From: a virus | UHGV virus genome: UHGV-0280597 | Strand: one strand, 5' to 3' | Length of the DNA stretch: 16,951 bases | Shown: in pieces, positions 1,546 to 16,568 of the stretch | Position numbering within the stretch: position 1 is the first letter of the stretch | Layout of the letters: every line of letters begins with the position of its first letter | Notes under the pieces: generated by a model | The model's input: the letters and a program-made list of their open reading frames with translations, nothing else | Databases searched by the model: none | What the model was told of the DNA's origin: nothing | Program-made: the position numbers and the translations under genes

Positions 1546-1788
1546 TCAACCCGCCTCCTTCTGAACATAACGGTTATAAATCAGTCCCTGAGGGCCATAA
1601 GGAAGCGGGATGTGCAACTCCTCTGGTTCAGAAACTATCCATTCTCCGGCCATCTCCGCTGGAGAGGTAATGATAAGTTGTTTGCTAATAAAAGGACCAC
1701 TCCTCTCAACAACAAGCTTACCATCTTCATTAATAAAAGCTTGGATGTCAGGTGTGCTTCCACACTTGGTGATGCAGCGTTTGAACAT
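1546..1788 (-). CDS. hypothetical protein, 80 aa from the ATG at 1788
   Basis: ORF-track ORF 1546..1830 trimmed to the in-frame ATG at 1788, which is preceded by GGGGGGA (Shine-Dalgarno-like) and lies downstream of an extended -10 element; the ATG at 1830 would lie upstream of that -10. Confidence 0.45.
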   Translation of the reverse strand: MFKRCITKCGSTPDIQAFINEDGKLVVERSGPFISKQLIITSPAEMAGEWIVSEPEELHIPLPYGPQGLIYNRYVQKEAG

Positions 1789-1811
1789 TTTGTGTCCCCC
1801 CATTTTATGTA

Positions 1812-1850
1812 CGGGGTAATTATAACACATTGAAATATAGTAATATTTGA
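1812..1850 (-). promoter_or_regulatory. candidate leftward promoter with extended -10 (TGtTATAAT)
   Basis: Minus-strand TGTTATAAT (reverse complement of plus 1819-1827) in an AT-rich intergenic segment directly upstream of the 80-aa ORF; the -35 is weak. Confidence 0.3.
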
Positions 1851-1914
1851 CGTAGATTTCTTTTGATCTATAAGCGATTTTTTAATGCTTTTAAGTTATA
1901 AATACTTGTTTTCA

Positions 1915-2586
1915 TCACCCATCTTGCTGCGGTGCTACTATTGAAAAGTGCTCACACCCTTTAGCCCAAATAGTTTTGATAGTTGTCCAACTGACTGGAA
2001 CCTTGATTTCGATTCTCCCGCTACAGTCACAAGTTTCGCAATCATCATCACCAAAGCATTCCGGGCAGCTTATAAACGTAGTTTCTGAAAATTCACCGGA
2101 TAGCACACCCTTAGCGCCGTTCTCGGCTGTTAGTCTCTTCGGCACCATGACCCAACCATCCGGAATTACCGGAGAGTTGCCGGGTTCTTTAATGTGCAAG
2201 CGAGGCTCACCATCTTTTGGCTCAGGCCACTGGCGCTCCATGTTGATCTTCAATTTATCTTCCATAGCAGCGGTAATTTCAGCATCGCTGATGCCAGCAC
2301 GGCGCTGTGAATCCCACAACAGAAACTGCATATCAGCCCACTCGCTAAGATCGTCTGGTTCGGCTGCGGCTTCCAGTGCCTCTTTTGAGAGGTGTTTCAG
2401 TGGACCAATGGGGCCAACGCAGCCAAATGTGGAGTCAGACCATTTGGCATGCTCGTGGCGAATCTGTTCGCGTTCCAGTGATGCCAGTGCAATTCGTGCC
2501 AGTTCCATTTGTTCGCCACGAGTAAGCCCGTTTTCAAGCGGATTTTTAATGAATAATTCGATACGTTCTTTGGTAATAGTGGTCAT
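1915..2586 (-). CDS. hypothetical protein with C-terminal Cys cluster (possible zinc ribbon), 223 aa
   Basis: ORF-track ORF; AAGGTG 8 nt upstream of the ATG at 2586; C-terminal motif CPECFGDDDCETCDC; tentatively similar to phage DUF551-type proteins from recall only. Confidence 0.55.
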   Translation of the reverse strand: MTTITKERIELFIKNPLENGLTRGEQMELARIALASLEREQIRHEHAKWSDSTFGCVGPIGPLKHLSKEALEAAAEPDDLSEWADMQFLLWDSQRRAGISDAEITAAMEDKLKINMERQWPEPKDGEPRLHIKEPGNSPVIPDGWVMVPKRLTAENGAKGVLSGEFSETTFISCPECFGDDDCETCDCSGRIEIKVPVSWTTIKTIWAKGCEHFSIVAPQQDG

Positions 2587-3917: not shown

Positions 3918-4400
3918 TTATTTGATAAGAAGTGAAGGTTTCCCAACTTTGAGTTGAGCACCGGGGATATTTAATCCTGCTTTTAGTTGGTGCTTGATTG
4001 CCAACTTGTCGGCTTTAATTGTCGTTTCAAACTCAACGTATTCAGGAGGAAGGGCGCTTGAGTCGATGATTTCTACAGTTTCTGACGGTTTGCGGATTGT
4101 TACCTGGTGAATACCTGCTCTAATCTTTTTCTTGCCAACCATTTCAAGCGATGAGGCTATATATGCCATAATGCTATCAATCTTATTTTGAATTACTGCT
4201 GCTCGTTCATTCAGTGACTTTGCCTCGTCCTTGAGGCGTTCAGCATAACCAGATTCATTTTTAATAATGGCGAGAAGTTGCTCTATTTTATCGGTAAATT
4301 CTCCTTCCATGCCTTCTATTGTGTCAGCAATCATCTCTGGTTCTAAATCTGAATCCATCAATTTTGCGTATTCATTGGCTATTTCATATAGTTTGCTCAC
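3918..4400 (-). CDS. Siphovirus Gp157-like protein, about 160 aa
   Basis: ORF-track ORF 3918..4406; likely GTG start at 4400 preceded by GGAGGT; N-terminus (V/M)SKLYEIANEY and coiled-coil character resemble the Gp157 family, which often accompanies phage recombinases (recall only). Confidence 0.5.
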   Translation of the reverse strand: MSKLYEIANEYAKLMDSDLEPEMIADTIEGMEGEFTDKIEQLLAIIKNESGYAERLKDEAKSLNERAAVIQNKIDSIMAYIASSLEMVGKKKIRAGIHQVTIRKPSETVEIIDSSALPPEYVEFETTIKADKLAIKHQLKAGLNIPGAQLKVGKPSLLIK

Positions 4401-5286
4401 TGGCAACCTCCAGTTTCGCTTTGCATTCTATGTAAATGGCTTGTACGTTCTGCTGCAATTTCATTCCAGATGTCAGGCGATATGCTTCTGCAAAATATCG
4501 TTTCAAATCATCCATGTTTTCTGCCTGAGCCATTTCATCACAAAGAAGTTGTGCTTTTTCCATTATTTCCTGCTGGCGTTTCCGTTCATCTTCGCGGATA
4601 TCTTCCTCTGATTTGTGCGGCATAACTGGTTCCTGATGCATACCTTCATCTTCGTTAAGCAGGTGAATGGCATTATCCAGTCGCTGGGCTTTAGGCCAGT
4701 ATTTGCTGGCGCGTTTAACTATTGTTTTACGCGCCATCTCTTCCCAGAATGTCTTCCACGGTCCATTCTTTGCCTTGCTCGTTGCTTCCACAGCTTTAAT
4801 TTCTGCCAGACTCATTTCTTCAGTCAGGTAGTCACCATCTGCTGTTTTAACCGTGCAATAACCACCAACAATAGAGCCTCGCTCACCAAATGCGTTGTAT
4901 TTGTGGGTTGGCGCTGAATCAAGGCCGTTTGATTCATAGGTGTCGTTTGAGTACACCAGTTTACATTGCCCCCACTTAATTGATCCTGTCGACTGTGCAA
5001 GGTGAAGTAATCCCATATAGCTGATATCAAGGCAAACCATGCCGTCGCGCGGAACTAGATAAGCAAGTTTGCTGGCCGGGTTTAAGGTGATGCCGATCGC
5101 CGCAACATTGATGATGGCGTTCTGTGCGCTGGTTGGATTTGCCAGTGCCGTTTTAGCCAGGTAATCATTTTTCTGGAAATACTGAATTGCAAACTGGCTT
5201 TCCTTAGCCCATGTCACCGTCTGTTCAGTCAATGCTCCGCAGAATAACTGCTCCTGCTGTTTAACGAATTCAACGATATTGCTCAT
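4384..5286 (-). CDS. recT: RecT-family single-strand annealing recombinase, 300 aa
   Basis: ORF-track ORF; size and sequence resemble RecT/Red-beta-type annealases (recall); occupies the lambda bet position; ATGA overlap with the upstream gene. Confidence 0.8.
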   Translation of the reverse strand: MSNIVEFVKQQEQLFCGALTEQTVTWAKESQFAIQYFQKNDYLAKTALANPTSAQNAIINVAAIGITLNPASKLAYLVPRDGMVCLDISYMGLLHLAQSTGSIKWGQCKLVYSNDTYESNGLDSAPTHKYNAFGERGSIVGGYCTVKTADGDYLTEEMSLAEIKAVEATSKAKNGPWKTFWEEMARKTIVKRASKYWPKAQRLDNAIHLLNEDEGMHQEPVMPHKSEEDIREDERKRQQEIMEKAQLLCDEMAQAENMDDLKRYFAEAYRLTSGMKLQQNVQAIYIECKAKLEVASEQTI

Positions 5287-5846: not shown

Positions 5847-5921
5847 AGGATGCTCCTTCTGTTTGATTGCATAACGAAAACGCCTCGAGTGAAGCGTTAT
5901 TGGTATGCGGTAAAGCCGCGC

Positions 5922-6290
5922 TCAGGCGGCTTTGATAGTCATATCATCTGAATCAAATATTCCAGATGTGTCGATATCGGTAATTCTTATTCCTTCGCTA
6001 CCATCCATTGGAGGCCATCCTTCCTGACCATTTCCATCATTCCAGTCGAACTCACACACAACACCATATGCATTTAAGTCGCTTGAAATTGCTATAAGCA
6101 GAGCATGTTGCGCTAGCATGATTAATACAGCATTTAATACAGAGCCGTGTTTTTTGAGTCTGTATTCAGAGTCTGACCAGAAATTATTAATCTGGTGAAG
6201 TTTTTCCTCTGTCATTACGTCATGGTCGATTTCAATTTCTATTGATGCTTTCCAGTCGTAATCAATGATGTATTTTTTGATGTTTGACAT
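5922..6290 (-). CDS. hypothetical acidic protein, 122 aa
   Basis: ORF-track ORF; start at 6290 just downstream of a strong minus-strand terminator; acidic C-terminal region (DIDTSGIFDSDDMTIKAA). Confidence 0.5.
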   Translation of the reverse strand: MSNIKKYIIDYDWKASIEIEIDHDVMTEEKLHQINNFWSDSEYRLKKHGSVLNAVLIMLAQHALLIAISSDLNAYGVVCEFDWNDGNGQEGWPPMDGSEGIRITDIDTSGIFDSDDMTIKAA

Positions 6291-6310
6291 CTGTTCATAT
6301 CCTCATAGAT

Positions 6311-6338
6311 AAAAAATTGCCCTCACATTGGAGGGCAA
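6311..6338 (-). terminator. intrinsic terminator (leftward)
   Basis: Perfect 8-bp stem TTGCCCTC/GAGGGCAA (6317-6324/6331-6338), 6-nt loop; on the minus strand followed by UUUUUU (plus 6311-6316 AAAAAA). Confidence 0.6.
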
Positions 6339-6485
6339 AGAAGATTTCCAATAATCAGAACAAGTCGGCTCCTGTTTAGTTACGAGCGACATTGCTCCGT
6401 GTATTCACTCGTTGGAATGAATACACAGTGCAGTGTTTATTCTGTTGTTTGTGCCAAAAATAAAGGCCGACTATGCGTCCTGAAA

Positions 6486-6851
6486 TTACTTAACCAATGA
6501 TGCTGCATATTCGATAAGGTAAAGCTTTGGAGCCAACCAAATTTTTAGCCAGTCGAAATAATTGAAGAAAACAACAATAGAAGTAATCGCTATTCCTGAT
6601 GTGAAAAGTATCGATAAAATAACAATATCCGCATCATCTCCTTTATTGCATGCCAAAATCATCAGATAAACACACGCTATAATCACCAATACACAGAGAG
6701 CCTGAATTCCAGCTGATGATACGGCGTGCCACATCAAAAGCTGATGGATGACATCAGGAATCTGTGCCTGGCTAAATGAAACAGCCGCGTCTATTCCATT
6801 GCTGGCTTTTTGCAGTAGTTCTACGAGAATCTTGTTTGCTTGTTCTTCCAT
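6486..6851 (-). CDS. hypothetical integral membrane protein (about 3 predicted TM helices), 121 aa
   Basis: ORF-track ORF; ATG at 6851 preceded by AAGGTG; hydrophobic segments ALCVLVIIACVYLMILA, IVILSILFTSGIAITSIVVFF; flanked by terminator-like hairpins on both sides; located in the sieB/ral neighbourhood next to N. Confidence 0.6.
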   Translation of the reverse strand: MEEQANKILVELLQKASNGIDAAVSFSQAQIPDVIHQLLMWHAVSSAGIQALCVLVIIACVYLMILACNKGDDADIVILSILFTSGIAITSIVVFFNYFDWLKIWLAPKLYLIEYAASLVK

Positions 6852-6890
6852 ATATCACCTTGATTGTAATAAGCATGAAATTATTTACGG

Positions 6891-6922
6891 CTAAAAAATA
6901 AAGGCCACCATCAGGCAGCCTT
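6891..6922 (-). terminator. terminator-like hairpin plus U-run (leftward), candidate tL1
   Basis: Stem AAGGC/GCCTT (6901-6905/6918-6922) with inner CC/GG pairs; on the minus strand followed by UAUUUUUU; overlaps the stop codon of the 83-aa ORF. Confidence 0.35.
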
Positions 6923-7162
6923 GTTGTAAATGTTGCAGGTATCAAGTAAGTAATTAGATGGAGCGCCATAAATTATGAATTCATCGTTTGTCGGGTCCAT
7001 CTCCATCTCTTGGCCTATTGCCATTCTTGCGTCAGTGTCATCAGCGGCGAAGCATAAAACAGCCCACGCACCCATTGTTTTAAAAAGAACTGCAATTGGC
7101 TGTGGTTTTACTGAATTTGCGTTAGCGCGAAAATCACAAATCGCACTTTCATGAAACTCCAT
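6911..7162 (-). CDS. hypothetical acidic protein, 83 aa (first gene downstream of N)
   Basis: ORF-track ORF; position equivalent to ral/early accessory genes of lambdoid phages; no family recognised. Confidence 0.5.
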   Translation of the reverse strand: MEFHESAICDFRANANSVKPQPIAVLFKTMGAWAVLCFAADDTDARMAIGQEMEMDPTNDEFIIYGAPSNYLLDTCNIYNKAA

Positions 7163-7825: not shown

Positions 7826-7872
7826 TACCAATCTGTTCCGTTTGGCTACCAGCGTCCTGCTGATGGCTAAAG

Positions 7873-7956
7873 AATACTGTAGGTATTTTATTGTGTAAAT
7901 ACCCAAGGTATTTATTTTGGTGAAATAATGATAAGCAAATGAATACAAAGGATATT
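7873..7956 (-). promoter_or_regulatory. OL operator cluster (three AATAC-N5-GTATT sites) with candidate pL
   Basis: Palindromic sites at 7873-7887 (AATACtgtagGTATT), 7898-7912 (AATACccaagGTATT) and 7942-7956 (AATACaaaggATATT); same motif as OR; candidate leftward -35/-10 (TTTACA-17-TATTCT) overlaps the first two sites. Confidence 0.6.
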
Positions 7957-8042
7957 TATTTTTTCGGTGTCTGCTTGTTCAGTGCTTTTTATGCGGGATA
8001 TGTGAAGTGGATCCCGATAGCTATTGCTGCCGGGATTATGGG

Positions 8043-8411
8043 TTAGTCAGCGAAGGTTAAGACGAGAATTACCTTAATGATGTCTGCTACAACAGACACG
8101 GCCATAGATAAACCAAAGACGATCCAAGCCATAGAGATGTCTTCACTACCATCGTATAGAGTTCCGTAATCACTGGTGTAAGGCGTAAATGTCGCGCCTT
8201 GATACAACAAGTATAAGCTTGATCCATAGAGGATAAATGCAGATATCCCTTGTATTGCTATGATCACTAGAATCATGAAACGAGCTGATCTATGCGCCCA
8301 AGCCTGGCTTATTTTTTCTGATAGAGATTTCGCAATAAAAGCATGCGCTAAGCCGTAAATTGTCGAGATTGCCAACATCCCCAAAAAGCTTGCTATAGCG
8401 GTTCCAACCAT
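8043..8411 (-). CDS. hypothetical small integral membrane protein (about 3 TM helices) in the rexAB slot, about 122 aa
   Basis: ORF-track ORF 8043..8432 (TTG start); more likely ATG at 8411 preceded by AAGGGG; begins 17 nt after the cI stop on the same strand with no intervening terminator seen; strongly hydrophobic segments. Confidence 0.6.
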   Translation of the reverse strand: MVGTAIASFLGMLAISTIYGLAHAFIAKSLSEKISQAWAHRSARFMILVIIAIQGISAFILYGSSLYLLYQGATFTPYTSDYGTLYDGSEDISMAWIVFGLSMAVSVVADIIKVILVLTFAD

Positions 8412-10906: not shown

Positions 10907-12332
10907 TTTTTATGCGCCGCCCCATAGCATCGAGGCAGAGCAGGCGGTGATTGGTGGATTGCTTCTGGATGATGACAGCAGTGAGCGCGTCCAGAAGGTT
11001 CTGGCGATGCTGAATCCTGACTCATTTTACAGCCGACCACACAAAATCCTTTTCGAAGAAATAACCAGAATGCACCGGGAGCAAAAGCCAGTAGATGGCC
11101 TGACGCTTTTCGATGAACTGGAGCGTAAATCGTTAACGGCGTCTGTTGGCGGTTTTGCTTATATCGCTGAGATCGCAAAGAACACGCCAAGCGCAGCAAA
11201 CATCGTTGCCTATGCAATGCAGGTTCGTGAAACCGCAATGGAACGCTACGCCATCAACCGCATGACTGAAGCGACGGAATTGCTCTATTCCCGCAACGGA
11301 ATGACTGCAACGCAGAAGTACGAAGCTATTCAGGCGATTTTCACGCAACTGACAGACCATGCAAAAACCGGATCGCGTCGCGGCCTTCGCTCATTTGGTG
11401 AGGTCATGGAAGACTGGGTTAGCGACCTTGAGAAGCGATTTGACCCGTCAGGCGAACAACGAGGAATGAGCACAGGGATCCCATCGCTGGACAGGATGCT
11501 GTCACCGAAAGGTCTGGTGAAAGGCTCTCTGTTTGTCATTGGCGCTCGCCCTAAGATGGGGAAAACGACGCTATACAGCCAGATGGCAATCAACTGCGCA
11601 GTGCATGAGAAAAAGCCCGCTCTGATGTTCAGCCTTGAAATGCCCGGTGACCAGATACTGGAAAAACTGGTAGGGCAGAAGTCAGGTGTTAACCCAAATA
11701 TTTTTTACCTTCCGGTGACAAATGACGCTGATGACGGATATCAGGGTGATTACGATGGTGACTTCAACAGGGCGATCGAAACAGCCAATCGCTTGAGTGA
11801 AATCGACCTGCTTTACATCGACGACACGCCGGGATTATCTCTGGCTCAAATCGTCAGCGAAAGCCGTCGAATCAAGCGAGAAAAAGGATGTGTTGGCATG
11901 ATTCTGGTCGATTACCTGACACTAATGACTGCTGAGAAGGCCGATCGAAACGACCTTGCCTACGGCATGATCACCAAAGGACTGAAGAACCTTGCCAAAG
12001 AGCTTGATTGCGTTGTTGTGCTTTTGACACAGCTTAACCGCGCGCTGGAAAGCCGAACCAATAAACGCCCATTACCAAGTGACTCGCGAGATACAGGGCA
12101 GATTGAACAGGATTGCGATTATTGGGTGGGGATCCATCGGGAAGGTGCTTTTGATGACAGCGTTCCTCCTGGTGAAACCGAACTAATCCTTCGTCTCAAT
12201 CGTCATGGCAATACCGGCACGGTGTATTGCATTCAGGCAAATGGCGCTATTTATGACACAGACCAACAGTCTGCTGAAATGCGCCGCCGTGAACGCGAGG
12301 AACCGCAATCCAAGAAGAAAGGAGGATTCTGA
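10896..12332 (+). CDS. DnaB-family replicative helicase, 478 aa
   Basis: ORF-track ORF 10881..12332 trimmed to the ATG at 10896 (GAGGGTGA upstream); N-terminal SIEAEQAVIGGLL motif and Walker A GARPKMGKT typical of DnaB-like helicases (recall). Confidence 0.9.
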   Translation: MTDNFYAPPHSIEAEQAVIGGLLLDDDSSERVQKVLAMLNPDSFYSRPHKILFEEITRMHREQKPVDGLTLFDELERKSLTASVGGFAYIAEIAKNTPSAANIVAYAMQVRETAMERYAINRMTEATELLYSRNGMTATQKYEAIQAIFTQLTDHAKTGSRRGLRSFGEVMEDWVSDLEKRFDPSGEQRGMSTGIPSLDRMLSPKGLVKGSLFVIGARPKMGKTTLYSQMAINCAVHEKKPALMFSLEMPGDQILEKLVGQKSGVNPNIFYLPVTNDADDGYQGDYDGDFNRAIETANRLSEIDLLYIDDTPGLSLAQIVSESRRIKREKGCVGMILVDYLTLMTAEKADRNDLAYGMITKGLKNLAKELDCVVVLLTQLNRALESRTNKRPLPSDSRDTGQIEQDCDYWVGIHREGAFDDSVPPGETELILRLNRHGNTGTVYCIQANGAIYDTDQQSAEMRRREREEPQSKKKGGF

Positions 12333-12412
12333 TGACCATCTACATCACTGAGCTTGTAACAGGCCTGCTGGTAATCGCAGGCCTTTTTATTTGGGGGAGA
12401 GGGAAGTCATGA
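12332..12412 (+). CDS. hypothetical 26-aa hydrophobic peptide
   Basis: Manual translation MTIYITELVTGLLVIAGLFIWGRGKS; AAGGAGG with 6-nt spacer before the ATG at 12332; start overlaps the helicase stop and its stop overlaps the ninB start. Confidence 0.35.
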   Translation: MTIYITELVTGLLVIAGLFIWGRGKS

Positions 12413-12849
12413 AAAAACTAACCTTTGAAATTCGATCTCCAGCACATCAGCAAAACGCTATTCACGCAGTACAGCAAATCCTTCCAGACCCAACCAAACC
12501 AATCGTAGTAACCATTCAGGAACGCAACCGCAGCTTAGACCAAAACAGGAAGCTATGGGCCTGCTTAGGTGACGTCTCTCGTCAGGTTGAATGGCATGGT
12601 CGCTGGCTGGATGCAGAAAGCTGGAAGTGTGTGTTTACCGCAGCATTAAAGCAGCAGGATGTTGTTCCTAACCTTGCCGGGAATGGCTTTGTGGTAATAG
12701 GCCAGTCAACCAGCAGGATGCGTGTAAGCGAATTTGCGGAGCTATTAGAGCTTATACAGGCATTCGGTACAGAGCGTGGCGTTAAGTGGTCAGACGAAGC
12801 GCGACTGGCTCTGGAGTGGAAAGCGAGATGGGGAGATCGGGCTGCATGA
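12409..12849 (+). CDS. ninB: NinB (Orf-family recombination protein), 146 aa
   Basis: ORF-track ORF 12391..12849 trimmed to the ATG at 12409; sequence MKKLTFEIRSPAHQQNAIHAVQQILPDP matches my recollection of lambda NinB closely. Confidence 0.9.
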   Translation: MKKLTFEIRSPAHQQNAIHAVQQILPDPTKPIVVTIQERNRSLDQNRKLWACLGDVSRQVEWHGRWLDAESWKCVFTAALKQQDVVPNLAGNGFVVIGQSTSRMRVSEFAELLELIQAFGTERGVKWSDEARLALEWKARWGDRAA

Positions 12850-13373
12850 CTATCAAATCAAATACGCCAGCACACGACAAGGACTGCTGGCAAACGCCGC
12901 TTTGGCTTTTTGATGCACTGGATATTGAGTTTGGATTCTGGCTGGATTCGGCAGCGAGCGACAAAAATGCTCTGTGTGCTCACTGGCTAACTGAGGCCGA
13001 CGACGCGCTCAATTCTGAGTGGGTAAGCCACGGTGCAATCTGGAATAACCCACCGTACAGCAATATCAGGCCGTGGGTGGAAAAAGCCGCTGAGCAGTGC
13101 ATACAACAGCGACAGACGGTAGTTATGCTTGTGCCAGAGGATATGTCAGTCGGATGGTTCAGCAAGGCTCTGGAGAGTGTCGACGAAGTTCGCATTATCA
13201 CTGATGGACGGATTAATTTTATCGAACCATCGACAGGGCTGGAGAAGAAGGGAAACAGCAAAGGCTCCATGCTGCTGATTTGGCGACCGTTCATCAGTCC
13301 TCGACGGATGTTTACTACCGTATCCAAAGCGGCATTGATGGCGATCGGGCAGGGCGTCAGGAGGGCGGCATGA
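12846..13373 (+). CDS. phage DNA N6-adenine methyltransferase (Dam-like), 175 aa
   Basis: ORF-track ORF 12786..13373 trimmed to the ATG at 12846 (ATGA overlap with ninB stop); NPPY catalytic motif ([10 protein letters not shown]) typical of N6-adenine methyltransferases. Confidence 0.8.
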
Positions 13374-13546
13374 GGCGACAGCGACGAAGTTTCACCGACA
13401 TCATCTGCGAAAACTGCAAATACCTTCCAACGAAACGCTCCAGAAATAAACGCAAGCCAATCCCAAAAGAATCTGACGTAAAAACCTTCAACTACACGGC
13501 TCACCTGTGGGATATCCGGTGGCTAAGACATCGTGCGAGGAAATGA
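13370..13546 (+). CDS. ninE: NinE, 58 aa
   Basis: In-frame ATG at 13370 within ORF-track ORF 13280..13546; [52 protein letters not shown] resembles lambda NinE (recall); ATGA overlap with the methylase stop. Confidence 0.8.
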
Positions 13547-13908
13547 CAATGGATTATTCACAGTTAAGTGATTTTGAAATTAACGTGGCGGTATTCGAAG
13601 CCATTCATAACGGATCACCGGATTACAAAGAAGGTGAGAATGGCGATATGGTGTTTGTCTCATTTGAGGGAGACATTGTAAACGGAGACGCAGTTGAAGT
13701 AGAAGTTGAGCGCGGATCCTTTAACCCATGCGCAAACCCAGCAGACTCATGGCCGATTATTGAAAAATACAGGATTAGCATTATCAATCTCGATGAAGAC
13801 GAGTGGGGTGCACGCGGTGTGGCCTACTGTAAATCTAAGCGAGCTATACATGAAAATCCCCTCCGCGCCGCCATGATTGTCTTTCTCATGATGCAGAGAA
13901 TCCAATAA
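13543..13908 (+). CDS. hypothetical nin-region protein, 121 aa
   Basis: ORF-track ORF 13507..13908 trimmed to the ATG at 13543 (overlaps ninE stop); acidic; conserved position in nin regions but family not confidently recognised. Confidence 0.6.
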
Positions 13909-14087
13909 TGCTTAGCCCATCCCAATCCATTCAATACCAGAAAGAAAGCGTCGAGCGGGCTTTAACGTGCGCTAATTGCGGTCAAAAGCTGCATGTGCTG
14001 GAAGTTCACGTGTGTGAGCACTGCTGTGCAGAACTGATGAGCGATCCGAATAGCTCAATGTACGAGGAAGAAGACGATGGTGATTAG
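13908..14087 (+). CDS. ninF: NinF, 59 aa (below the ORF-track cutoff)
   Basis: Manual translation [59 protein letters not shown] matches my recollection of lambda NinF; start overlaps the preceding stop. Confidence 0.75.
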   Translation: MLSPSQSIQYQKESVERALTCANCGQKLHVLEVHVCEHCCAELMSDPNSSMYEEEDDGD

Positions 14088-14469
14088 CCGATACGGACAA
14101 ATAACGTTTAAACATTTTCAAGACAATCCAACATGGGCTGCTGCGGCTGGATATGACTTTAATTATTTTGATTGTCTGTCAGTCGCATGTATAGCAACTA
14201 CCAATGTTGCTAACAACATAATCGATGAATTCTTGGATTTTCCAGACTATCAGGTCAGAGAGTTGCCTGCATTTTTTGTGAAAGTATCTGTTGCTACAGT
14301 TCTGTTATTTATTTTGTTATTCGCATATCCATTGCTTGCCGTATTTGTTTATGTGAGATGCAAACACTCACAAAAGAAATACAGCGGAGAGCATACCGAT
14401 ATTACCAGCCAAAATATGCGTGTGTGGTTGAGGAGATGCCAAGAGAAATGGGGGAGACGTCATGGCTAA
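14077..14469 (+). CDS. hypothetical single-pass membrane protein in an AT-rich insert, 130 aa
   Basis: ORF-track ORF; ATG overlaps the last codons of ninF; one hydrophobic helix (VSVATVLLFILLFAYPLLAVFVYV) followed by a basic tail; local AT-richness contrasts with the flanks. Confidence 0.45.
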   Translation: MVISRYGQITFKHFQDNPTWAAAAGYDFNYFDCLSVACIATTNVANNIIDEFLDFPDYQVRELPAFFVKVSVATVLLFILLFAYPLLAVFVYVRCKHSQKKYSGEHTDITSQNMRVWLRRCQEKWGRRHG

Positions 14470-14752
14470 CCTACGCAAAGAAGCACGCGGCAGAGAATGC
14501 CAGGTTCGTATTTACGGCATATGCAATGGCAATCCTGAAACTACAGTTCTGGCACATTACCGGATGGCTGGAATTTGCGGAACGGGAATGAAACCTGACG
14601 ACCTGATCGGCGCATGGGCTTGTAGCGCGTGTCACGATGAAATCGACCGCCGCACCCATAATCTCGACAACAAAGACGCCAGGCTTTACCACCTCGAAGG
14701 CGTGATCAGGACGCAGGCGATACTGCTGAAGGAGGGGAAGATTAAGCCATGA
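14462..14752 (+). CDS. ybcO: YbcO-like protein (DLP12-type nin-region protein, putative nuclease), 96 aa
   Basis: ORF-track ORF; GGGGGAG upstream of the ATG; MANLRKEARGRECQVRI...CSACHDEIDRR resembles E. coli DLP12 YbcO (recall). Confidence 0.75.
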   Translation: MANLRKEARGRECQVRIYGICNGNPETTVLAHYRMAGICGTGMKPDDLIGAWACSACHDEIDRRTHNLDNKDARLYHLEGVIRTQAILLKEGKIKP

Positions 14753-15111
14753 ACGAATATCAGTTTGTGCTTCCATACCCGCCGTCGGTGAATACCTACT
14801 GGCGAAGACGGGGAAGCCAATATTACATAAGCGATAAAGGCCAGAAATACCGAAAAGACGTTCAGCAAATCATCCGCCAACTCAAGTTAGACATCTTCAC
14901 CAAATCACGACTCCGCATCAAAGTCATCGCAGACGTTCCAGACTCCCGCCGCCGCGACCTCGATAACATCCTGAAAGGTTTACTCGACTCCCTTATCCAC
15001 GCCGGATTTGCGGAAGACGACGAGCAATTCGATGACATTCGCGTAATTCGTGGTGTGAAAGTACCAGGCGGACGGCTTGGAATAAAAATCACCGAACTGG
15101 AGAACGCATGA
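14749..15111 (+). CDS. rusA: RusA-family Holliday junction resolvase, 120 aa
   Basis: ORF-track ORF; PYPPSVNTYWRRRG...DVPDSRRRDLDNILKGLLDSL matches RusA catalytic-core motifs (recall); ATGA overlap with ybcO. Confidence 0.85.
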   Translation: MNEYQFVLPYPPSVNTYWRRRGSQYYISDKGQKYRKDVQQIIRQLKLDIFTKSRLRIKVIADVPDSRRRDLDNILKGLLDSLIHAGFAEDDEQFDDIRVIRGVKVPGGRLGIKITELENA

Positions 15112-15296
15112 ACGCCACAATTCAAACGATACCAGAGCTTCTTATCCAGACACGAGGCAATCAGACCGAAGTGGCGAGGATGCTTTCCTGCGCAAGAGGA
15201 ACAGTGCTCAAGTACAACCGAGACAGCAAAGGCGAGCGTCATGTAATAGTTAACGGCGTCCTGATGGTCAAACAGGGCAAGAGGGGAAGACGATGA
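15108..15296 (+). CDS. ninH: NinH-like small DNA-binding protein, 62 aa
   Basis: ORF-track ORF; GNQTEVARMLSCARGTVLKYNRDSKGERHVIVNGVLMV resembles lambda NinH (recall); overlaps the rusA stop. Confidence 0.75.
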   Translation: MNATIQTIPELLIQTRGNQTEVARMLSCARGTVLKYNRDSKGERHVIVNGVLMVKQGKRGRR

Positions 15297-15916
15297 GACT
15301 CGAAAGCGTAGCTAAATTTCATTCGCCAAAAAGCCCGATGATGAGCGACTCACCACGGGCCACGGCTTCTGACTCTCTTTCCGGTACTGATGTGATGGCT
15401 GCTATGGGGATGGCGCAATCACAAGCCGGATTTGGAATGGCTGCATTCTGCGGTAAGCATGAACTCAGCCAGAACGACAAACAAAAGGCTATCAACTATC
15501 TGATGCAATATGCACACAAGGTATCGGGGAAATACCGTGGTGTGGCAAAGCTCGAAGGAAATACTAAGGCAAAGGTACTGCAAGTGCTCGCAACATTCGC
15601 TTATGCGGATTATTGCCGTAGTGCCGCGACGCCGGGCGCAAGATGCAGAGATTGCCACGGTACAGGCCGTGCGGTTGATATTGCCAAAACAGAGCAGTGG
15701 GGGAGAGTTGTTGAGAAAGAGTGCGGAAGATGCAAAGGTGTCGGCTATTCAAGAATGCCAGCAAGCGCCGCATATCGCGCTGTAACGATGCTAATCCCAA
15801 ACCTTACTCAACCCACCTGGTCACGCACTGTTAAGCCGCTGTATGACGCTCTGGTGGTGCAATGCCACAAAGAAGAGTCAATCGCAGACAACATTTTGAA
15901 TGCGGTCACACGTTAA
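15293..15916 (+). CDS. Q: Q late-gene antiterminator, 207 aa
   Basis: ORF-track ORF; sequence MRLESVAKFHSPKSPMMSDSPRATASDS...CRDCHGTGR...CGRCKGVG matches my recollection of lambda Q very closely; followed by a pR'-like promoter and terminator. Confidence 0.9.
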   Translation: MRLESVAKFHSPKSPMMSDSPRATASDSLSGTDVMAAMGMAQSQAGFGMAAFCGKHELSQNDKQKAINYLMQYAHKVSGKYRGVAKLEGNTKAKVLQVLATFAYADYCRSAATPGARCRDCHGTGRAVDIAKTEQWGRVVEKECGRCKGVGYSRMPASAAYRAVTMLIPNLTQPTWSRTVKPLYDALVVQCHKEESIADNILNAVTR

Positions 15917-15958
15917 CAGCATGATTGCCACGGATGGCAACATATTAACGGCATAATA

Positions 15959-15987
15959 TTGACTTTTTGAATAAAGTTGGGTAAATT
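15959..15987 (+). promoter_or_regulatory. late promoter pR' (TTGACT-17-TAAATT) with Q-utilisation region
   Basis: TTGACT at 15959-15964, 17-bp spacer, TAAATT at 15982-15987; same hexamers as lambda pR' (recall); immediately downstream of Q. Confidence 0.65.
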
Positions 15988-15994
15988 TGACCCA

Positions 15995-16186
15995 ACGATG
16001 GGTTAATTCGCTCGTTGTGGTAGTGAGATGAAAAGAGGCGGCGCTTACTACCGATTCCGCCTAGTTGGTCACTTCGACGTATCGTCTGGAACTCCAACCA
16101 TCGCAGGCTGAGAGGTCTGCAAAATGCAATCCCGAAACAGTTCGCAGGTAATAGTTAGAGCCTGCACAACGGTTTCGGGATTTTTT
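15995..16186 (+). ncRNA. 6S-like short late leader transcript (pR' to tR'), about 190 nt
   Basis: Interval from the predicted pR' start to the tR' U-run; length and sequence correspond to the lambda 6S RNA as I recall it. Confidence 0.5.
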
Positions 16187-16190
16187 ATTT
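16130..16190 (+). terminator. tR' intrinsic terminator
   Basis: Long compound hairpin TCCCGAAAC...GTTTCGGGA (16130-16138/16172-16180) with inner GCAGG/CCTGC pairing, followed by TTTTTTATTT. Confidence 0.75.
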
Positions 16191-16265
16191 GGGTCAGTCG
16201 TATAAAGGTCATTACGGAAGGCTGTTAACCTTCTTATCGTGGTTCGAGTCCACGCTGTCCCGCCA
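16191..16265 (+). tRNA. tRNA-like gene, anticodon GTT (Asn), 75 nt with encoded CCA
   Basis: Manual fold: acceptor GGGTCAG/CTGTCCC (one U-U mismatch), D-arm GTAT/TTAC (one mismatch), anticodon stem GAAGG/CCTTC with loop CTGTTAA, T-arm CGTGG-TTCGAGT-CCACG, discriminator G, CCA. Confidence 0.5.
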
Positions 16266-16270
16266 AATAT

Positions 16271-16346
16271 GCTGGTTTAGCTCCAATGGTAGAGCAGTCG
16301 CCTTGTAAGCGAATGGGTAGCGGTTCAAGTCCGTTAACCAGCACCA
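16271..16346 (+). tRNA. tRNA-like gene, anticodon TGT (Thr), 76 nt with encoded CCA
   Basis: Manual fold: perfect 7-bp acceptor GCTGGTT/AACCAGC, D-arm GCTC-CAATGGTA-GAGC, anticodon stem GTCGC/GCGAA (one mismatch) with loop CTTGTAA, T-arm AGCGG-TTCAAGT-CCGTT, discriminator A, CCA. Confidence 0.6.
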
Positions 16347-16568
16347 TAACTGAGCCGTAGCCACTGGCTATCCTGAATTCATCAGTGATAGTTATGCTGC
16401 GGCCTTCTACACATGACCTTCGTGAAAGCGGGTAGCAAGAGGCTGCGCTAACAACCTCCTGCCGTTTTGCCCGTGCATATCGGTCACGAACAAATCTGAT
16501 TACTAAACACAGTAGCCTGGATTTGTTCTATCAGTAATCGACCTTATTCCTAATTAAATAGAGCAAAT

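Follow-up and report, generated by a model that had tools for sequence, protein, structure and literature searches.

What is the AT-rich stretch between ninF and ybcO in the viral genome UHGV-0280597, does it encode a protein, and what might such a protein do for the phage? We analysed a 16,951-nt stretch of DNA from this genome, and this whole stretch is called the window below. The only long open reading frame (ORF) of the segment is 130 aa long. It belongs to the early (nin) operon of a lambdoid prophage from E. coli. The genes of this operon are ordered NinB, methyltransferase, NinE, NinX, NinF, the 130-aa ORF, YbcO, RusA, NinH and Q. A preliminary description of the window had pointed out an AT-rich segment between ninF and ybcO in which one long frame overlaps both neighbours, and our analysis confirmed its coordinates, its overlaps and its composition. 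The 130-aa ORF and its surroundings are as follows.

13507-13908: NinX gene (Pfam).
13908-14087, + strand: ninF, the upstream neighbour (Pfam PF05810, E=1.9e-12; neighbour clustering).
14064-14068, + strand: Shine-Dalgarno-like GAGGA within the 3' end of ninF, separated by 8 nt from the ATG of the 130-aa ORF (direct reading of the sequence).
14077-14087, + strand: 11-nt overlap of ninF and the 130-aa ORF, ATGGTGATTAG..., the left mosaic junction (ninF stop TGA at 14085-14087).
14077-14469, + strand: coding sequence, stop codon included, of a predicted membrane protein belonging to phrog_2638 (ORF list; PHROG match, E=1.9e-55; dN/dS 0.03-0.3; annotation in RefSeq E. coli genomes).
14462-14469, + strand: 8-nt overlap of the 130-aa ORF and ybcO, ATGGCTAA, the right mosaic junction (sequence, ORF list, and homology that resumes exactly at 14462).
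14462-14752, + strand: ybcO (DUF1364, putative nuclease), the downstream neighbour (Pfam PF07102, E=2.8e-44).
14749-15111: RusA gene (Pfam).

The ATG of the 130-aa ORF at 14077 lies 11 nt within ninF, and its TAA at 14467-14469 lies 8 nt within ybcO, which starts with the ATG at 14462. In the other frames across the segment there are only short ORFs (36-77 aa), which overlap real genes. Nin genes are normally packed tightly in the ATGA manner, with overlapping stop and start codons (PMC8022706). By its position in the early right operon and by this packing, the 130-aa ORF is a nin-region gene. It resembles the lambdoid nin genes (ninA-H, ninX/Y/Z), which are non-essential and delayed-early, in its position between a tR2-like site and Q, in its packing by codon overlaps and in its variable presence, but it shares no homology with those nin genes that were identified next to it in the window.

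It had been proposed that the segment encodes a protein. In nearly all of about 90 related loci, retrieved from collections of viral sequences and of genomes, the same frame is intact and encodes 117-130 aa; shortened versions of 111 or 120 aa occur in a few prophage alleles. Homologue pairs with moderate divergence gave dN/dS values of 0.03-0.3, and in comparison with homologues that are 50-58% identical dS was saturated and dN was only 0.34-0.48. The identical protein sequence was also found in public E. coli assemblies, RefSeq E. coli genomes included, where it is always annotated as "hypothetical protein". These comparisons show that the 130-aa ORF is a genuine protein-coding gene under purifying selection, as had been proposed. 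A non-coding spacer and a segment that codes in another frame were considered as well, and both were ruled out by the conservation, the dN/dS values and the intact ORFs across loci.

The segment had further been described as compositionally distinct and horizontally acquired. The 130-aa ORF has a GC content of 0.394 and a GC3 of 0.366, whereas the neighbouring nin genes have 0.45-0.53 and 0.45-0.57, respectively. In the rightward operon (9600 to the end), 0.76% of 393-nt windows are equally AT-rich and each of them overlaps the 130-aa ORF, which is the most AT-rich stretch of this operon. For the entire window the corresponding figure is 6.5%, because the leftward arm carries other AT-rich patches. 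The description of the segment as compositionally distinct was upheld. The GC3 of alleles that are 50-58% identical is 0.42-0.60 (0.45-0.60 in most of them), closer to the GC3 of their host phages. The low GC3 is peculiar to the allele group of the window, and this fits a recent horizontal acquisition with a lower-GC phage pool as the source.

Comparison with related phages gave the boundaries of the segment. Homology to other E. coli prophages ends at 14085/86 and restarts at 14462, and the DNA in between is specific to the cassette.

14087-14461, + strand: cassette-specific DNA, missing from prophages that have another gene in the slot (blastn breakpoints against two loci, L006 and L007).

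Because homology breaks at these two points, the 130-aa gene is one of several alternative cassettes in the slot between ninF and ybcO or ninG. The other occupants are unrelated soluble ORFs of 89 aa and 70 aa in related prophages, and a KilAC antirepressor or an HNH gene in other genomes; the earlier statement that related phages carry other genes at this place was therefore borne out by the comparison of nin regions. Most homologues that are at least 48% identical stand directly after a NinF-like ORF with the same 11-nt overlap, the exceptions being a few with a 14-nt overlap and three that follow a NinE-like ORF. On the other side, most of these homologues and of the clade A loci are followed directly by a YbcO-like or NinG-like gene, again with an overlap of 8 nt. 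The gene is exchanged between phages as a cassette, and the ends of the cassette coincide with the overlapping stop and start codons of ninF and ybcO/ninG. In this respect the locus is a clear example, fit for a textbook, of nin-region mosaicism at gene boundaries.

The cassette is rare in E. coli. Among 5426 complete E. coli genomes, its DNA was found at an identity of at least 95% in 37, ST131 strains among them, and at 60-80% identity in 4 further genomes; the full arrangement from ninX to rusA is common to only 3 genomes. The flanking nin genes occur without the 130-aa gene in more than 2000 E. coli genomes. Judging from this distribution, the 130-aa gene would be non-essential for phage growth, as other nin genes are.

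When would the gene be expressed? A consensus scan of 12300-16400 gave two sites on the + strand, one on either side of the nin genes.

12361-12384, + strand: terminator-like hairpin upstream of ninB (the sole + strand terminator-like site in 12300-16400).
15959-15987, + strand: promoter-like site just after the Q gene (the sole + strand promoter-like site in 12300-16400).

The hairpin is at the position where lambda has tR2, and the promoter-like site is where lambda has PR'. Between 12384 and 15959, the scan found no promoter-like or terminator-like site on the + strand, although weak or non-sigma-70 promoters could escape a simple consensus scan of this kind. The 130-aa gene would be transcribed from PR only after N-mediated antitermination, and its translation would be coupled to that of ninF and ybcO. 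Since transcription would come from PR after antitermination by N, the product would be expected during lytic growth or induction and not in a resting lysogen.

The encoded protein can be divided into three parts.

14077-14268, + strand: N-terminal region, residues 1-64 (alignments A1 and A2, AlphaFold2 model, family hydropathy profile).
14269-14358, + strand: predicted transmembrane (TM) helix, approximately residues 65-94, with a conserved proline (Y84-P85) (Kyte-Doolittle, family profile, model).
14359-14466, + strand: basic tail at the C terminus, residues 95-130, in which residues 108-128 are predicted to form an amphipathic helix (alignment A1, charge count, AlphaFold2 model).

The AlphaFold2 model of the full-length protein (pLDDT 85, pTM 0.71) consists of a beta-hairpin at residues 2-9, two short helices at 11-23, a helix at 30-53, a continuous helix at 60-101 and a helix at 108-128. 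Residues 1-64, which are acidic (net charge -5), contain the beta-hairpin, the two short helices, a conserved motif and the amphipathic helix 30-53. The hydrophobic stretch at about 65-94 reaches a Kyte-Doolittle maximum of 2.73 over 19 residues, and in the hydropathy profile of the family, residues 65-93 form the only strong peak. From residue 96 on, the tail has a net charge of +6, and N113 and W117 in it are invariant among the closer homologues (alignment A1). A single hydrophobic helix of membrane-spanning length was found, as is expected of a bitopic protein. The 130-aa protein is thus a predicted inner-membrane protein with one TM helix; the outline given earlier, an N-terminal domain, a single TM helix and a basic tail, agrees with charge, hydropathy, model and family profile alike. 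To our knowledge, a membrane protein is not predicted for any other nin gene.

Helix 30-53 was considered as a second TM segment throughout the family and was rejected, as it has amphipathic periodicity and a smoothed hydropathy of about 1 at most. In a few distant members the hydropathy of this helix goes up to 2.2. When residues 1-64 were modelled alone, confidence was low (pLDDT 62.6, pTM 0.31), and the region was therefore left out of fold searching. On this modelling, the N-terminal region may not be an independent domain.

Conservation is concentrated in the N-terminal region. The conserved residues of the 130-aa protein are T10, H13, F14, D16, P18, W20, the run AAAGYDFN, D32, C33 and S35, and the motif common to its close relatives is HF.D.P.WAAAGYDFN..DC.S. 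In the family alignment P18 and G25 are invariant, and F14, A21, Y26 and D32 are kept in at least 90% of the members. A conserved V-R-E-L-P stands just before the hydrophobic helix, and a proline within this helix is conserved as well. The core of the family is the N-terminal motif together with the TM helix, and the long basic C-terminal helix is limited to closer relatives.

The orientation of the protein in the membrane was predicted from its charges. Over 40 members, the net charge averages -1.65 on the N side of the TM helix and +3.4 on its C side; the net charge is positive on the C side in 34 of the 40 and negative on the N side in 30, and the C-side flank is the richer in K/R in 26. 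Most of the basic residues follow the TM helix, and the positive-inside rule predicts an N-out/C-in protein whose basic tail would be cytoplasmic and whose conserved acidic N-terminal region would be periplasmic. Two observations speak against the N-out orientation. Proteins can, but seldom do, move a 64-residue N-terminal region through the membrane when no signal peptide is present, and the N-terminal region has only one invariant cysteine, which would be unusual for a periplasmic domain.

Homology searches placed the protein in a catalogued family. It matches phrog_2638 ("unknown function") with E=1.9e-55, residues 9-127 aligning with profile positions 2-120 of 120, and all 40 of the aligned homologues match this PHROG family and no other. 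Relative to phrog_2638, the lambdoid subgroup has 8 extra residues at the N terminus (MVISRYGQ), and its basic C-terminal helix is longer. When 1.84 billion representative proteins were searched exhaustively with a profile, only 43 clusters were found, nearly all of them proteins of about 100-130 aa. The family has no name, function or structure, and its membership therefore says nothing about mechanism. No meaningful match to the 130-aa protein was found in Pfam or NCBIfam, and a Pfam scan of the 40 homologues gave only chance-level matches to TM helices, such as LapA_dom and ATP-synt_C. A profile search of the PDB found no relative by sequence, and three fold searches returned generic long-helix matches and nothing informative. 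PADLOC returned 0 families at E<=10, and no match to a known exclusion or defence family was found in PADLOC or Pfam; Pfam contains models of Imm and SieB. In a phage collection, tblastn gave no match in the lambda or P22 records, and searches of viral contigs with two distant members (P0052 and P0037) gave no loci. A search of the literature for phrog_2638 and for a ninF-linked transmembrane protein found nothing relevant. Already on record are the gene's annotation as hypothetical in many genomes and its entry in PHROGs. The new findings are the architecture of the family, the boundaries of the cassette and a range that extends from lambdoid prophages to phages taken as virulent.

Beyond lambdoid prophages, relatives with 36-40% identity are carried by P1-like phage-plasmids, including RCS47 and SJ46. 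A relative was found in 251 P1-like plasmids, which are mostly non-mobilizable and, among the matches listed, about 80-130 kb in size. In Yersinia phage P840 the homologue is located between recombination genes (exodeoxyribonuclease VIII) and Dam methylase, and in Proteus Gorganvirus phages it is found among helicase, exonuclease, nuclease and primase genes. A distant member in Kagunavirus coliphages has its ATG overlapping the stop codon of the helicase(-primase) gene (ATGA), and another is in the early replication module of the jumbo Dickeya Salmondvirus phages. We take Kagunavirus, Gorganvirus and Salmondvirus to be virulent genera. The presence of relatives in P1-like phage-plasmids and in phages taken as virulent, beside replication and recombination genes, points to a role in the lytic programme and not to a lysogeny-specific one.

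What could this role be? As a whole, we read the locus as a translated accessory gene of the delayed-early nin operon that encodes an inner-membrane protein of phrog_2638, with a proposed action at the envelope, and we regard this complete reading as evenly balanced between right and wrong. Within it, we are far more certain of the anatomy and of the expression logic than of the exclusion or envelope function. Early in infection, the 130-aa protein would act on the cell envelope, perhaps through a block on the entry of superinfecting phage DNA, in the manner of T4 Imm, or through a change to a host inner-membrane component. Such an exclusion or envelope-directed early function is our best guess, and it is a tentative one that is more likely wrong than right. 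The toxin, exclusion and lysis-modulating roles put forward in the preliminary description are candidates, and the computations count neither for nor against them. As far as is known, most small early phage membrane proteins of established function act on the envelope, and T4 Imm is an example. The likeness to T4 Imm is one of kind only: T4 Imm sits in the inner membrane as a small, non-essential protein that is produced early in the lytic programme and is patchily distributed, but it has no similarity in sequence or fold to the 130-aa protein, and exclusion is only proposed here. The patchy, cassette-like distribution of the 130-aa gene fits an envelope function. Its constant neighbours from replication and recombination fit a DNA-related role equally well.

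These neighbours are the main attraction of a different proposal, in which the protein is a membrane tether or organiser of phage replication or recombination that anchors the replisome, a recombination protein or DNA through the basic tail or the N-terminal motif. In its lambdoid setting the gene stands between NinB/NinX/NinF and YbcO/RusA or NinG, in Kagunavirus-like phages it is ATGA-coupled to the replicative helicase-primase, in Gorganvirus it lies among exonuclease, nuclease and primase genes, and in Yersinia phage P840 it adjoins exodeoxyribonuclease VIII and Dam; the Arg/Lys-rich tail is, in addition, predicted to be helical. Adjacency is, however, barely informative, because in small phages most early-operon genes serve replication and recombination anyway. 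Moreover, the basic C-terminal helix is missing in distant members, and only the N-terminal motif and the TM helix are family-wide. The gene is not needed for replication, since more than 99% of otherwise similar E. coli nin regions are without it, and the fold searches revealed no similarity to any DNA-binding fold. A precedent in principle is phi29 p16.7, an early protein of the same length class (130 aa) with one TM helix that is encoded among replication genes. However, in p16.7 the TM helix is N-terminal and is followed by a C-terminal DNA-binding domain, whereas the 130-aa protein has a central TM helix and is conserved in its N-terminal part, and no homology between the two was found. 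We consider a tether of this kind decidedly unlikely.

Very unlikely, too, is that the protein is an anti-defence factor, made as an early accessory protein to neutralise an effector or sensor of host immunity that is associated with the membrane. Patchiness, an early-operon setting and a foreign composition are typical traits of counter-defence genes, and the 130-aa gene has a patchy, cassette-like spread in the early operons of temperate phages and of phages taken as virulent, as well as a foreign-looking composition. Against this, the protein has no homology to any known anti-defence protein, and membrane-embedded examples are rare among those that have been characterised.

A regulator of lysis timing, or a holin-like or antiholin-like protein that forms or modulates membrane lesions, agrees with a loose description of holins: the protein has 130 aa, a single TM helix and a highly basic tail that is predicted to be cytoplasmic. 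The gene, however, is upstream of Q in the early operon, outside the late lysis cassette, and a closely related prophage with the same gene has its own genes for holin, endolysin/lysozyme and a lysis protein downstream of Q. None of the 40 members had a meaningful Pfam match, and no holin family is included in the weak matches at E<=1. The strongly conserved N-terminal motif suggests a specific partner rather than generic hole formation. A lysis function is highly improbable.

The preliminary description had also called the gene a moron, and this label did not hold. Two observations are in its favour, namely a GC content unlike that of the neighbouring genes and the fact that the gene is extra relative to phages in which ninF directly abuts ninG, as in P22. 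A classical moron or a gene for lysogenic conversion, active in the repressed prophage to the host's advantage, is nevertheless a scarcely credible reading: its borders carry no promoter-like or terminator-like site on the + strand, its start and stop codons overlap both neighbours, and homologues occur in Kagunavirus, Gorganvirus and Salmondvirus, genera taken as virulent, to which lysogenic conversion therefore cannot apply. By definition, a moron is an independent transcription unit with its own promoter and terminator that is expressed from a repressed prophage (PMC3594210). The 130-aa gene has the deviating base composition, but in the consensus scan it has no promoter or terminator of its own, and it is therefore not a moron in the strict sense. 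It resembles morons of the HK97 gene 15 type (PMC3594210) in being extra DNA relative to related phages, in its deviating GC and in encoding a small membrane protein, but differs from them in that it is without its own promoter and terminator, is embedded in the operon by codon overlaps and is not expected to be expressed from a repressed prophage. The locus thus carries a caution: AT-rich composition and a small membrane protein alone do not make a moron.

Returning to an early protein that acts at the envelope, a bolder version of this reading can be formulated. In it, phrog_2638 would be a new functional class of early phage membrane protein, in which the N-terminal motif (F.xF.D.P..A...GY.P...DC.S) binds a specific inner-membrane or periplasmic host target and so provides a new mechanism of exclusion or host takeover, or links the phage helicase or replisome to the membrane. 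We regard this as unlikely. Such a class would span temperate lambdoid phages, P1-like phage-plasmids, small phages taken as virulent and jumbo phages of Enterobacterales.

In summary, the locus is a tidy but fairly ordinary piece of phage mosaicism, and the family to which its product belongs is catalogued but unstudied. A function, if found, would annotate this family across lambdoid prophages, some of them in ST131 E. coli, across hundreds of P1-like phage-plasmids and across several further phage genera, and it might reveal a new way for phages to act on the host envelope early in infection.

The window represents a lambdoid early region with strong mosaicism; it carries RecT-type recombination genes as well as genes for a LexA-family repressor, replication protein O and a DnaB-like helicase. 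None of the complete E. coli genomes searched carries at least 80% of the 16.9-kb window at a single site; in the best match, 10 separate pieces together account for 68% of it. Besides the phrog_2638 gene in the ninF-ybcO slot (window 14077-14469, + strand), four stretches are equally AT-rich (GC ≤0.394 over 393 nt):

Window 1554-2124, AT-rich stretch
Window 3997-4637, AT-rich stretch
Window 5892-6997, AT-rich stretch
Window 7853-8289, AT-rich stretch

All four fall in the leftward or immunity part of the window and may be further exchanged accessory cassettes. At the other end, two tRNA genes are located just downstream of Q and a PR'-like promoter site:

Window 16191-16346, tRNA-Asn (GTT) and tRNA-Thr (TGT) genes

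The same tRNA-Asn/tRNA-Thr arrangement was observed in the related ws5-3 prophage.

A junction was found next to the gene in Klebsiella phage phiKp_30 (L001:4320-5277), where the gene has 97.5% nucleotide identity to the window. Upstream of the gene, this record leaves the 3' portion of ninF unannotated. Homology to the window runs 28 nt past the ybcO start and then switches to a 'DNA-binding protein' gene, after which the real DUF1364 gene follows. This junction resembles a scar left by recombination at the boundary between genes.

Some prophage alleles of the gene have an early stop and encode 111 or 120 aa rather than 130 aa, lacking part or all of the predicted basic C-terminal helix (residues 108-128). 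The shortened alleles are as follows:

L017:4001-4336, shortened allele
L018:4001-4336, shortened allele
L030:513-875, shortened allele
P0002, shortened protein

Either the tail is dispensable or the host prophages are decaying. At the other end of the protein, the N-terminal region (residues 1-64; window 14077-14268) gave a pLDDT of 62.6 and a pTM of 0.31 when modelled alone, compared with a pLDDT of about 85-90 inside the full-length model. This gap has a bearing on topology; in the predicted structure the N-terminal region may pack on the long helix, or a shallower alignment may be responsible for the low stand-alone score.

GenBank names of two phrog_2638 members are misleading: the Yersinia phage P840 protein (OQ716682.1 ORF53; L003:3998-4357) is called 'conotoxin', and that of Proteus phage 2207-N35 (QHJ72807.1) 'ribonucleotide reductase large subunit'.

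In E. coli HS, the ninF-ybcO slot is occupied by an 89-aa ORF (L006:1078-1347). Loci of P1-like phage-plasmids carry another ORF immediately upstream of the phrog_2638 homologue (e.g., L064:3602-3991), and the HS ORF shows 42% identity to the C-terminal part of this upstream ORF (E=7e-23). Because of this resemblance, lambdoid and P1-like phages seem to draw small early genes from a common circulating pool.
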